A stretch of 64,000 nucleotides of DNA, taken from contig OX597814.1 of NCBI GenBank assembly GCA_951406725.2, positions 158,596,001-158,660,000 of the forward strand, read 5' to 3'. Each line of letters starts with the position of its first letter. Within the stretch, counting starts at the first letter, position 1. Below, one piece after another: positions 2,982 to 60,836 of this stretch. Both the position numbers and the translations under genes were made by a program. The DNA is from Octopus vulgaris. Lineage: Eukaryota. The notes under the pieces were generated by a model. It was given only the letters and a program-made list of their open reading frames with translations. It was not told the DNA's origin and ran no database searches.

Positions 2982-3188
2982 TTATATATATATATATATA
3001 TATACATAGGTACATTTACATGTATGATGCATATACGTATAATGCATTTACATATATGTGTATATATTGACAAGCATACATCCACTCGCATACTTTGGAT
3101 ATATGTCTGTATATATGTATATATGTATATATATGTATATATATATCTATATATCTATCTATCTATCTATATATATATATATATATAT

Positions 3189-4285
3189 ATAACATAAGGG
3201 ACTAAAGCCATCTGAATATGGCTAGGGACAGGGCAGGGTGGTGGGGGTGTTACTGTTGCATTTAGCCCCAGGCGAACATCGACGTCACCAGAAAGGCTCG
3301 ACACCGTCACGGTGTCCTTATCCTGCAAAGGGAGGTAATTCCCCGATGAAGCGGAAACCACACACGGACCATGGTTTCAAGGTGTATTGCCTATCGTCGG
3401 CGTGTTGTAGGCTTCCGCTTCCTCGACGAATTCTCACTCTGCAGGATATTCATATATAGATTTTCAAGCAAAATACATTTGCTGATTTCGAAAATCTGTT
3501 CGAAAGCAATAATAATTCTCTAAAAGAGATATAGACAGTAACTGCTCGATAACATAAGGGACTAAAGCCATCTGAATATGGCTAGGGACAGGGCAGGGTG
3601 GTGGGGGTGTTACTGTTGCATTTAGCCCCAGGCGAACATCGACGTCACCAGAAAGGCTCGACACCGTCACGGTGTCCTTATCCTGCAAAGGGAGGTAATT
3701 CCCCGATGAAGCGGAAACCACACACGGACCATGGTTTCAAGGTGTATTGCCTATCGTCGGCGTGTGGTAGGCTTCCGCTTCCTCGACGAATTCTCACTCT
3801 GCAGGATATTCATATATAGATTTTCAAGCAAAATACATTTGCTGATTTCGAAAATCTGTTCGAAAGTTAGTCCCTTATGTTATCGAGCAGTTACTGTCTA
3901 TATCTCTTTTAGAGAATTATTATTGCTTTCGAACAGATTTTCGAAATCAGCAAATGTATTTTGCTTGAAAATCTATATATGAATATCCTGCAGAGTGAGA
4001 ATTCGTCGAGGAAGCGGAAGCCTACCACACGCCGACGATAGGCAATACACCTTGAAACCATGGTCCGTGTGTGGTTTCCGCTTCATCGGGGAATTACCTC
4101 CCTTTGCAGGATAAGGACACCGTGACGGTGTCGAGCCTTTCTGGTGACGTCGATGTTCGCCTGGGGCTAAATGCAACAGTAACACCCCCACCACCCTGCC
4201 CTGTCCCTAGCCATATTCAGATGGCTTTAGTCCCTTATGTTATCGAGCAGTTACTGTCTATATCTCTTTTAGAGAATTATTATTG

Positions 4286-4287
<2 letters not shown>
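3189..4287. repeat. 360-bp unit array: 678 bp direct (1.9 units) plus 421 bp inverted, embedded in (TA)n
   Basis: Lines 3241 and 3601 are identical (period 360); one substitution seen (3406 T vs 3766 G); reverse complement runs 3867-4287. Confidence 0.97.
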
Positions 4288-4341
<54 letters not shown>

Positions 4342-47017: not shown

Positions 47018-47021
47018 GGGC

Positions 47022-47412
47022 CTCTGTGCCGGTGGCACATAAAAAGCACTATCCGATCATGGCCATTGCCAGCCTCGCCTGGCCACCATGCTGGTGGCAC
47101 ATAAAAAGCACCATCCGATCGTGGTCATTGCCAGCCTCGCCTGGCCACCGTGCCGGTGGCACATAAAAAGCACCATCCGACCGTGGCCATTTGCCAGCCC
47201 TGTCTGGCACCTGTGTCGGTGGCACATAAAAAGCACCCACTACACTCACGGAGTGGTTGGTGTTAGGAAGGGCATCCAGCCGTAGAAACATTGCCAGATC
47301 AGACTGGGCCTGGTGCAGCCTTCTGGCTTCCCAGACCCCAGTTGAACCGTCCAACCCATGCTAGCATGGAAAGCAGACGCTAAATGATGATGATGATGAT
47401 GATGATGATGAT
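47022..47412 (+). mobile_element. SINE family C with internal tandem repeat of about 62 bp
   Basis: ggtggcacataaaaagcac recurs at about 47031, 47093, 47155 and 47218. Confidence 0.85.
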
Positions 47413-48757: not shown

Positions 48758-49189
48758 AGTGTGTATGTATGTATTTATGATTGTACATATGTATGTATGT
48801 ATGTATGTATGATTGTACATATGTATGTATGTATGTATGCATGTGCCTAATTCAATCATCACTTGTAACTGTGGAATTGAAATCATTAAATTCTGCTAGG
48901 ATAATCACACAACTGAATTACCACAAGGCATTGAAAAGGAATTAAACATAGAAGTGCCATAATTCCTTCTAGAGGATAGCTATTTCGTGCTTAATGAGAA
49001 TATTTATTTCCAAAAATCTGTAACTACAGCAAGGACAAAAACAGACCCTCTCTTTGCAAATTTTCATCATGGGTTAGCTAGAGATTACAATGTACCAAAA
49101 TTCACTACAATAATGTTGCAATCCTTATTTTATACGTACAGAATAAATGGGAATGATAACTTAATGATTGCCTCATTTTATAAAATGAA

Positions 49190-50250
49190 AGCATAGAAAT
49201 GTTAAAAAAATTCAAAACACTACTCAATAGAATTAACTTAGGTATACAATTCCCCATTAAATACAGCCAAGACCAAGTCCCATTTTTAGATATCCTAATA
49301 TAGAAAGTCAAAAACCAGAGACATATATATACTATAAACCAACAGACTCTAAAAAATATCTATCTTTCAATTCATGCCATCCAAGATGGAAGAGAGGAGA
49401 TGTCCCATGTAATCTGGCCAGAATGATTTGCACAATTTTATCTGATGAAAACATGTGACATACTTCAAGAGCCTAATGATACACCCTTTGACAGAAATTA
49501 TCTACCATCTTTAATCAATAATGGAATGCAACAAGCCAAGAAAATTAGTATCCAAACAGTAAAATAAACAATATATATCACAACTGAAAATCTTTCCTTT
49601 CATTTCCACCCACAATCCTAAAAATAATGAGGCCTACAATACTATATTTCAAAATATATGAACACTAAAGAAAGTCTCCAGAACAAACCAAATCCTCCAA
49701 ACTCGTACCTTCATAAAAAATAAAAGACAATCTAAATCAATGTAAAAATATTAACCATGGCCAAAAATTGTTAATATTTTTATACAGTAACAACAGAATA
49801 ACAACAGAATCAACAGTTTGCACTTCGTTAATATTTTTACACAACAACAGAACTAACAGCAAAAAATACTGAAGATCCAACAATGGCATATGTTTAAATC
49901 TATCAGATAGATCAAATATCTGTTTTGATAAGGGGCAACTCTTCAAAATATAAAAAATTAACTTTGTGAGCACCTGAAAACTTAATTTATGTAATAACAG
50001 GCTAAGCACATGGAAAAAAAACTACATAAGAAAAGTCATGCTGTCCTTAAAATAATGCAAAATTTGAATTCTGGAGCTGTGTAAAATAGGACTCGGTCAA
50101 TATATTAGACATAGGTGCCAGTAAGAAACAAACATTTTATGATCATCCTGTTTTTCAGTTTTCAAATGGCTCATTGCAACTGTATTGCATCAACAAAAAA
50201 AGATAAGAGCAACATTCATAAAATACTAAGCACTTCTGAACCACTATGAA
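49190..50250 (+). pseudogene. Decayed Penelope-like RT/thumb region
   Basis: DQVPFLDILI...YYKPTDSKKYLSFNSCHP readable at about 49270-49383 with stops and frameshifts; typical PLE RT C-terminus. Right boundary approximate. Confidence 0.7.
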
Positions 50251-57678: not shown

Positions 57679-60600
57679 CTGTAAATATAAGACATAAAAG
57701 TTAGAATTTAAAATAAAATTTGTTAATAACTAGAAATGGTAAGAAAACTATATGAGATGCTTTGAAATTAAATCCATTTACATCTTTGGCCACTATAAAG
57801 ATAACATAACTTTAAGAGACCAAGATGAATAAAGAGCTAATAAGAAGAGTCCTGCTGTTTTAACAGAAGAAAATTCTGATTGTCAAGGTATAAATAGTTT
57901 GTAACTAGTAAATCTTATAAAAACAATGCTACAGTCAAGTAGGTTTGCTTTAATGTTTTCTGAAATAACTATCTCACAGTCATTTTATATATATTTGTAT
58001 TGAGACATACATTGTAAATGAATTTCAGTATAAAAATTCCCATGATAATGACAAGCTAAATTAAATTTTGGTAACCAAGGAAATAATTGCTTTTAAAGAG
58101 TAGCTAATTAAGAAATTCATCAAGTAAAATGGGAATTCAGAATCCAATTATGAGTGATAATAATGTTTCATTACAATGAAATAGCATAAATATCTGCTTG
58201 AATTGTCTCACAAGATAAACCAAATTTAGAAGGGTATTCTTTATTTGTGAAGTCACTGGAGTTTTCTGTATTATAACATAACTGGCTTCCATTGATAAAT
58301 ACTTGAAAGAGAGCAATTTAGAAGAGGGTGTTCAATGATGATTTATATTTCATTTTTTTATAGGATGTTTACAAAAGAAAGGCAGTATCATAAAGAAACG
58401 CAGTGCAGGCCTTCCAAAATTAGTGACATAGATTTAGTTAATATTTGTCTTGAACATTTATAGCTCTTATGTCTGTAGAAAGTATGTTGCTGAGAATGCA
58501 GATAGTTGAAGTTCTGCAGTAAGGCTTTGAAGGTAGACATAGTGAGAACAATGAGATTTTAAGGGAGGCCTAAATATTTCAGAGGAACAGAAACCATTGT
58601 AGTAAACCTTGAAGAAACAGCATGTTTGCAACTTAGTGATAAAGATCAATTGGCAATTGAATTTCTAAACTCATAATGGATTTCTGGGGAACAAAGCATT
58701 GGACTCTCAATCATGAAGTAATGAGTTTGATTCCCAGACTGGGATATGTGTTGTGTTCTTGAGCAAAATACATTATTTCACATTGCTCCAGTTCACTCAG
58801 TTGTACAAATGAGTTGCAACGTCACTGGTGCCAAGCTGTATCAGTTTTTGTCTTTTCATTGGATGACATCAGTGGTGTGGAGAGGGGAGGCTGGTATGCA
58901 TAGGCAACTGCTGGTCTTCCATAAACAATCTTGCCTGGATTTGTACTTTGAATGGGAACTTTCTAGGTGCAATCTTATGGTCATCCATTACCTCAGTAAA
59001 TTTTTACACTTTTTTTGGCCTTCTATGGATGATGATTTGAATATGAGTATATGCAGTAGCAGTAAAAATGTCCCAAACAAGTAAGAAATACTTTAGTACG
59101 GAACTTAAATTAATTATCTAGAAAGAAAATTTATTATTATTCTGATTTTGTTTCGTTATTTTTTTTTTTTTGTTCTTGAGAGGGGTAACTACTTCAGTCA
59201 ATGTATATGGAGAAGCTGAATCTCTGTAGCTTTCAACTTTTTAGGTGTTTCTGGTTTAACAGTCACACAATAGGGGAGATAGTGACACAGGATTATGTGT
59301 CATATTATACTGGTAAGGACAAGACATGACAATGGTGGAAACAGTGATGAAAACAATCACAACATCGATGATGATGATGACGACTACTCCAGTTCCGAAT
59401 AGCCTTCCAACTTAAGATAATAACACCAATGAGGATTTTTCTTTAAGATATAGGATTTCATCCCTGGAGGAGTAAAAATAGTAGAGAACTACTATTAGAA
59501 ATACTACAGGTTTAATAGTTTTTCTATATATATAGTGAAAGAGAGAAAGAAAGAGAGAGCAAAGATTGAAGGAGAGATTTTCAACAACAAAACTTCATGT
59601 ATGTGTGTGGTGTCTATGTGTAAATATCAGCTCTTGTCAAGCATCCAACCCACGCCAGCATGGAAAACAGACATTATATGATGATTGTGGTGGTGGTGGC
59701 GGTCGTCGTCGTCGTCATCGTCACAATAATGGTGATGATGATGATGACGATGATGATATATCTTAGGATGGTTTCTCATCTGAAGTGCTTATAAACTAAG
59801 CAGGAATTGAACACAAATTTAAAAATATCAAATAATGAATTATCAAGAAGCCAAATAAGTTACAAAAGTAAGAAACCAGAACATAGAGAATTCAGGAGTG
59901 AAAACAAAATTAGGTGGCTTTACTTTGTCTAAGAAAATTGGGATTTGTAATGAAAATGTTCCAGCCTGAAAACAAATGAAGGAAAAGCATAATACTTTTG
60001 TAGCATTTTAGAAAATAAGAACTGGATGAACTAATCATATTTTATGAATGGCAAGGGTCTAGAAAAGTCACTCAGGTGTAAGAACAGGTAAAAGGTACTA
60101 TTTTATATATGAGGGATTAAAGATGTTTTCTTTTTTTATGTTAGCACTTCTGAAAATATTTTTTATTTGATGATATTACAATATCCTGAATATAGGTTTT
60201 CTTAAGGTTTTACAGAGGTCACTACCAGTTTACTTTTGTTGGGGAAGACCACCAAATAGTGAAAATATTTTTGAAAATTATTACATTCTTGTTGTTTAAG
60301 CCCCCACCAAATCAGCACCACACTTACAACAGATATTAAGGCATATCAGCTTTGATAATCATGTCTTTTCTTTCTTTCATTCTTTTCCCTAGGAATAGTA
60401 AACCCAGCACTTAGCTGTCCAACGTTTTTTCAAAATGTATTATGTGATTTGAGGGGGGGGGGGGGGGTATTTGGCTGCTATTTCTGGTACACCAAGTGAC
60501 TTTTTAAGGCTCCTTCACTATCTCACACCAATGTATATAGTAAATACTGATACATGATAATACTGACAAACCTTGCCAGTGATACAGAGAAGGCACTTGT

Positions 60601-60836
60601 GCCAGTGACACATAAAAGGCACTTGTGCCAGTGACACAAAAAAGGCACTTGTACCAGCGACACATAAAAGGCACCCACTACACTCTTGGAGTGGTTGGTG
60701 TTAGGAAGGGCATCCAACCATAGAAACCAAGCCAAACGAGACTGTCAAACCCATGCTAGCACAGAAAATAGATGCTAAGTGGTGATGATGATGATAATGA
60801 TGATGATGATGATGATGATGATGATAAAATTGTTAC

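Follow-up and report, generated by a model that had tools for sequence, protein, structure and literature searches.

Animal non-LTR retrozymes are non-coding elements made of tandem 150- to 450-bp units with a GC content under 50% and one type I hammerhead ribozyme in each unit (Cervera and de la Pena 2020, PMC7229834; Li et al. 2026, 10.64898/2026.07.22.740005). Penelope-like elements (PLEs) have been put forward as a strong candidate for their mobilisation from circular RNAs (PMC7229834), and more recent work adds the co-occurrence of retrozymes with PLEs and their similarity to PLE terminal repeats (pLTRs) while calling the mechanism unresolved (10.64898/2026.07.22.740005). As far as the accessible text of the retrozyme papers goes, the copying of retrozyme circles by PLEs has been proposed and not demonstrated. 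The accessible text of PMC7229834 describes no inverted arms, tails or fixed start sites, and the word "inverted" occurs 0 times in it.

PLE insertions are described as carrying an inverted, 5'-truncated arm and a one-sided tail of 30 to 40 bp (10.1101/2021.04.23.441226; PMC3846280). In vitro, the tail of a lizard PLE is bounded by two internal reverse-transcription start sites that are used on both target strands, and hammerhead cleavage is dispensable for insertion (PMC11167929). Self-priming on an antisense template had earlier been suggested for head-to-head PLE insertions (PMC3846280), and short non-autonomous Penelope elements have been mentioned in butterflies (PMC6685494).

Among natural hammerhead variants, U4C, U3-A8 and a U10.1-U11.1 mismatch have each been reported (Perreault et al. 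2011, PMC3088659; Cervera and de la Pena 2014, PMC4209133). U4C considerably reduces hammerhead activity in vitro, yet it sustained viroid infectivity; stem II with a U-U base is another variant known from nature (PMC3088659). A palindromic stem III implies cutting that depends on dimers (PMC4209133). Eight of the nine frog retrozymes tested showed no cleavage (10.64898/2026.07.22.740005).

We analysed a 64,000-nt stretch of Octopus vulgaris DNA (the window), in which positions 3189-4287 hold two head-to-head arms of a 360-nt unit with (TA)n runs on either side. This element is an insertion of a young non-coding 360-nt family with a variant hammerhead motif, likely copied by a PLE enzyme from a likely circular RNA. 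In the main texts of the papers covered by our literature searches, neither this family nor a retrozyme array or insertion with two arms and a tail is described. The parts of the element are as follows.

3167 to 3188, no strand: (TA)n target run on the left, lying within a longer AT-rich tract (from sequence)
3189 to 3866, minus strand: arm 1, 678 nt, unit 1 to 318 over 1.88 units, with its outer end at unit 1, the no-tail start site; RNA sense is the minus strand
3866 to 3867, no strand: blunt head-to-head arm junction, where unit 318 meets unit 17 (from arm alignment); its place differs among insertions
3867 to 4287, plus strand: arm 2 (inverted), 421 nt, unit 317 to 17, with its outer end at unit 317, the tail start site; RNA sense is the plus strand
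4244 to 4287, plus strand: PLE-type tail of 44 nt (unit 360 to 317), at one outer end only; the tail concept comes from the PLE literature
4288 to 4340, no strand: right (TA)n target run (from sequence)

The unit has a GC content of 46%, and its minus strand is taken to be the RNA because of the geometry of the insertion. Much of what the initial annotation had reported for this locus is borne out: the arm coordinates and the trimer arithmetic are correct (678 + 421 - 2 = 3 x 360 + 17 = 1097), both flanks are (TA)n, and a single substitution separates the unit copies, at unit position 218 (T at window position 3406, G in the other two copies). There is no credible open reading frame within the element, where the longest stop-to-stop frames are 90 aa, and the unit is structured as claimed, its RNA-sense strand folding better than shuffles (z -6.3). 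The junction at 3866|3867 is blunt, with zero microhomology.

The 360-nt unit is a young dispersed family (F1) of several hundred copies. Matches occur genome-wide (at least 186, with 40 of 1038 candidates scored), a 27-nt internal unit pattern has 413 exact matches in the genome, and there are 443 exact junctions between a (TA)n run and unit 317. Divergence of the copies from the column majority has a median of 0.8%. Of 182 outer flanks, 161 consist of TA only. Four loci with an interrupted TA run (L013, L043, L044 and L157) reveal target duplications of about 12 bp. In this the family agrees with animal non-LTR retrozymes, which lack LTRs and form dispersed new insertions with target duplications of more than 4 bp.

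We mapped 121 distinct F1 loci, excluding the degraded locus L084 from all counts. At 60 loci not selected by their ends, 46 of 104 outer ends lie at unit 1, 50 at 317-321 and 8 elsewhere, so that 96 of 104 fall at two fixed sites 44 nt apart. Endpoint mapping by genome-wide search had been named by the initial annotation as a way to expose a satellite with random endpoints; the outer endpoints proved to be fixed. For 60 loci selected by the 317 end, 42 have the partner end at unit 1 and 5 have it at 3-28; the other 13 show no partner end, in some cases because the extracted sequence stops short of it. A set of 80 insertions has two clean arms, one with each of the two fixed outer ends; this set leaves out L150, L158, L203, L204, L205 and L215, which are clipped at the edge of the extracted sequence or complex, and seven two-arm loci with other ends.

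The inner junctions of these 80 insertions are spread all over the unit. They are blunt in 20, have an overlap of 1-5 nt in 40 and a longer one in 11, and show a short gap in 9. Arms reach 11 units in length. The combination of fixed outer ends and variable inner ends is the "inverted arm plus tail" signature of PLEs. Indeed, F1 resembles PLE insertions (Craig et al. 2021; Arkhipova et al. 2013, PMC3846280; Frangieh et al. 2024, PMC11167929) in its head-to-head arms and in a tail lying between two fixed ends, and further in its AT-rich or (TA)n targets and in a hammerhead upstream of the start sites. It differs from PLEs in lacking an ORF, in its 44-nt tail, in arms that are multi-unit concatemers, and in having no similarity to the pLTRs of the PLEs compared. 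We also considered whether the tail arm always trails the other arm; it does so in only 47 of 80 insertions, so this is not general.

The fixed outer ends bear directly on the reading given in the initial annotation, in which a single continuous trimer from a circle had its end flipped by L1-style twin priming. The arithmetic at 3189-4287 fits such a trimer, but the outer ends are fixed family-wide while the inner ends vary, and the two arms are instead separate copies begun at two fixed sites. The 1097-nt continuity is due to chance, because the unit-1 arm stops at 315-320 in just 3 of the 80 clean insertions, the present locus among them (about 1.3 would be expected if stops were uniform). 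We regard a flipped trimer as very improbable. Two further observations that accompanied it are correct as sequence and lose their significance: the 17-mer shared by both ends of the concatemer is automatic, because in a periodic sequence one arm starts at unit 1 and the other stops at 17, and the seamless 318/317 join matches the variable inner end of one arm to the fixed outer end of the other.

The junction 3866|3867 is spanned by no contig in the eight public runs examined, for which contigs alone were searched, in line with an artefact of the assembly or of reads folding back, or with a satellite that expanded in place. Such an explanation has to contend with 80 independent two-arm loci that have differing junctions, asymmetric arms, fixed ends and, in some cases, target duplications, and with a junction that is not a palindrome; its probability is negligible.

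Each unit contains, on the RNA strand, a type I hammerhead layout that was absent from the initial annotation. It combines a 6-bp stem I with a U4C core; a U-U mismatch opens stem II, and stem III, of 2 bp, is capped by a palindromic tetraloop. The three copies in the element are listed here.

3361 to 3406, minus strand: hammerhead copy 1, U4C; the substitution at 3406 breaks the outermost stem I pair; predicted cut 3367/3366
3721 to 3766, minus strand: hammerhead copy 2; predicted cut 3727/3726
4026 to 4071, plus strand: hammerhead copy 3, stems as in the family layout, U4C; predicted cut 4065/4066

Core position 4 is C in 262 of 268 F1 unit copies, and the sole common variant in the F1 core falls at the free position N7. 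With its non-coding tandem units of this size and GC content and one type I hammerhead in each, F1 is like the animal non-LTR retrozymes, and it shares with axolotl HHR_Amex2, as presented in PMC7229834, a tetraloop on a 2-bp stem III and a U-U at the stem II base. Unlike those elements, it has a U4C core, and its RNA is a putative one.

The motif extends to related families. F2 has a 355-nt unit with about 72% identity to that of F1, 143 exact pattern matches in the genome and the same two ends as F1; the F2 copies seen (L060, L067, L073) are mostly C3U, and the whole genome has six canonical-core matches. In the older families F3 and F4 the core is canonical in most copies, and a distant 360-bp tandem family at one locus (L134:637-1190) has a hammerhead core with a U3-A8 covariant. 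The sister families terminate at the same two homologous sites as F1. Departures of these kinds have each been reported in natural hammerheads; unlike in those reports, the different core variants (U4C in F1, C3U in most F2 copies seen, U3-A8 at the one locus) mark separate sister families of one clade. Canonical-motif searches would therefore miss such families. Rfam scans returned no hammerhead match in the window, nor in a canonical sister copy, and a genome search with RF00163 returned six motifs, all of them unrelated to the unit. A further and older repeat family, seen at L032, L033 and L036, has a hammerhead stem II of about 70 nt.

In an alignment of the sister families, 97.6% of 247 cells are paired and two-sided changes occur in 6 of 13 pairs, the loop palindrome included, compared with 6-53% for slid controls. 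The 19 chosen rows are mutually related and were in part picked by hammerhead-specific patterns, and for this reason the covariation is support rather than proof that the three-stem hammerhead fold is conserved through the sister families. A motif scan of the opposite strand found no canonical hammerhead core, placing the fold on one strand only. Of the label "retrozyme/retroviroid-like" given in the initial annotation, the first half is upheld by dispersal, fixed ends and haplotypes, and the second finds no support, given this absence from the other strand.

The copies also carry information about their template. Comparing the two arms within each insertion over 23 polymorphic sites gives 12 mismatches in 1180 comparisons (1.0%), as against 21.9% when arms are shuffled between loci, and ten private variants are fixed in both arms. 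In the 69 insertions with sites covered at least three times, 185 variants are fixed throughout the units, 21 occur in some of the units and 136 are singletons. Singletons occur at 0.62 per unit. Arrays of 5-10 units in which every unit has the same private variants are found for several haplotypes (L023, L078, L215). Exceptions to one haplotype per insertion are L056, a mosaic array, and L013, whose arms are of different haplotypes; at L216, one variant is common to the first unit of both arms only. Arm lengths within an insertion correlate (Spearman 0.62) and lie within 30 nt of each other in 20 of 80 insertions versus 6.6 when permuted, a correlation that does not prove a single template because the loci were of mixed selection criteria and share a common stall zone at unit 95-170.

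The arrays pass through the predicted cut site exactly in 275 of 284 cases, and the inner ends show no peak there (5 of 160, versus 5.8 expected). Two of three co-directional template jumps (L078 and L079, independent of each other) land at unit 181-182, 2-3 nt off the predicted cut site, in what is a tiny sample. Unit 181-182 is where the 3' end of a hammerhead-cut RNA would fall. A monomer circle most simply accounts for the shared haplotypes, the arms of up to 11 units, the exact passage through the cut site and the lack of an end peak there, and we consider it probable that the template is a circular RNA. The rolling reverse transcription of a 360-nt circle proposed in the initial annotation is probably right as to a 360-nt template copied repeatedly; the circle itself we infer, as we do hammerhead cleavage and the partner enzyme.

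The same family and the same double priming by a PLE could also operate on an uncut linear read-through transcript of a tandem array, the hammerhead being a weakened relic and the circle unneeded. The non-canonical cores of the two youngest families are compatible with such a template, as are the inner ends without a peak at the cut site, the mosaic array L056 and the L216 variant restricted to the first unit of both arms. PLE insertion in vitro is independent of hammerhead cleavage (PMC11167929), and read-through of young homogeneous arrays would also give one haplotype per insertion. However, copies of a linear transcript cannot outgrow their source array, yet arrays of 5-10 units with fixed private variants exist at L023, L078 and L215; partly distributed variants are rare (21 versus 185 fixed), although there are 0.62 singletons per unit; and two jumps adjoin the predicted cut site. 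We therefore think a linear template rather unlikely, though clearly the most serious competitor to the circle. With the circular and linear readings taken together, we are highly confident that F1 belongs among PLE-mobilised retrozyme-like elements.

In 4 of the 8 public sequencing runs examined the unit assembled as one 390-nt contig, the length expected of a closed 360-nt cycle with 31-letter words; the others yielded 855 and 361 fragments (two large runs), 32 and 7. The 390-nt contigs are weak evidence for a circle because no run is recorded as RNA and tandem DNA yields the same cycle. Among the 24 listed public sequencing runs from which these 8 come, none was an RNA run containing the unit. 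Runs X6, X16, X17 and X20, labelled as four other organisms, have a near-identical unit, for which related species or labelling are possible reasons.

The claim in the initial annotation that the element is young, non-autonomous and dependent on a PLE agrees with the dispersed copies, the 443 junctions, the fixed ends and the single haplotype per insertion. The genome contains PLEs with intact 781-codon frames encoding reverse transcriptase (RT) and GIY-YIG domains, six compared copies of which are 96-99.5% identical. The targets of these PLEs are (TA)n runs. Their two 3' ends lie about 38 nt from each other, and in L135 and L142 each arm has one of them. They also carry a CX4CxxC linker motif; a similar one is known from the Neptune and Nematis clades (10.1101/2021.04.23.441226). 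One seemingly intact young copy (L127:430-5672) has direct 456-bp terminal repeats, the 781-codon RT and GIY-YIG frame and, upstream, a 359-codon frame without a Pfam match.

A single (TA)n-flanked insertion, L208:468-960 (G000:C2:87783800 onward), brings this PLE and the unit together. One of its arms is a normal 317 arm; the other starts with 270 nt of the no-tail 3' end of the 781-codon PLE (98.9%) and passes into the unit near position 8. This apparent chimera suggests that the unit and the PLE use common machinery, though as 1 of 121 loci it could also represent a nested insertion with a small deletion. Among candidates for the enzyme we put the 781-codon PLE first. (TA)n runs are likewise the targets of a second young PLE family, whose copy at L131:2021-5183 has 766-bp inverted arms that are 100% identical. 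The L131 PLE has a hammerhead-like motif with C at core position 4, where its relative at L138 has U. Unit matches beside PLE frames in L131, L136 and L134 were considered as traces of an autonomous parent and proved to be separate sister-family insertions.

A different relation to PLEs would follow if the unit were the terminal repeat (pLTR) of an autonomous PLE yet to be found, with the arrays as truncated tandem insertions. The end structure is the same as that of autonomous PLEs, frog retrozymes resemble pLTRs in the account of 10.64898/2026.07.22.740005, and our GIY-YIG matches, at least 148 in number, come from the scoring of 150 out of 6136 candidates. Set against this, the arms at 121 F1 loci are pure head-to-tail units, up to 11 of them, and never enter coding sequence. 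Translated searches of 210 family loci found neither an RT plus GIY-YIG reading frame within the unit arrays nor a PLE frame continuous with the unit. Nor is there similarity to the ends of the PLEs compared: the initial annotation had suggested checking whether the unit is the pLTR of a full-length PLE, and none of the 46 PLE-bearing loci has a PLE with sequence similarity to it. We judge the pLTR explanation improbable.

Under the favoured explanation, that of a non-coding unit copied from a circle by a PLE enzyme, transcription of tandem copies would yield RNA of the unit's minus strand, which paired hammerheads would cut and which would then be ligated into a 360-nt circle. The PLE protein would make a nick in each strand of a (TA)n run, with about 12 bp between the nicks. 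Reverse transcription would be primed at each nick, starting from unit 1 at one of them and from 317 at the other, with a single RNA or two identical RNAs as template. Each copy would continue for up to about 11 units and then stall, and the two cDNA ends would be joined bluntly or via a few bases of microhomology.

A more specific version of this scheme is possible, and we offer it tentatively. A pair of PLE enzymes may sit on one 360-nt RNA circle, priming from both (TA)n strands at sites 44 nt apart and rolling round it, so that every insertion would document how a telomerase-related RT carried out rolling-circle reverse transcription. The separately weakened cores of the youngest families (U4C and C3U) would then stop the circle from being recut, and the element would exploit a PLE with which it shares structure and no sequence.

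F1 is young and numerous enough for mechanism to be read from its copies, which show fixed PLE-type starts, one haplotype per insertion and seamless passage of the ribozyme site, and it bears on why PLE insertions are head-to-head. With a defined RNA and target from this family and with a candidate enzyme at hand, the existing in vitro PLE assay (PMC11167929) could be applied, which would make the long-assumed mode of spread of animal retrozymes directly testable.

Elsewhere in the window, positions 48852-49742 hold a decayed and frameshifted PLE reverse transcriptase fragment. Short tandem arrays with 62-bp and 26-bp periods and a common motif lie at 47019-47237 and 60574-60674 and are probably pieces of another repeat family.
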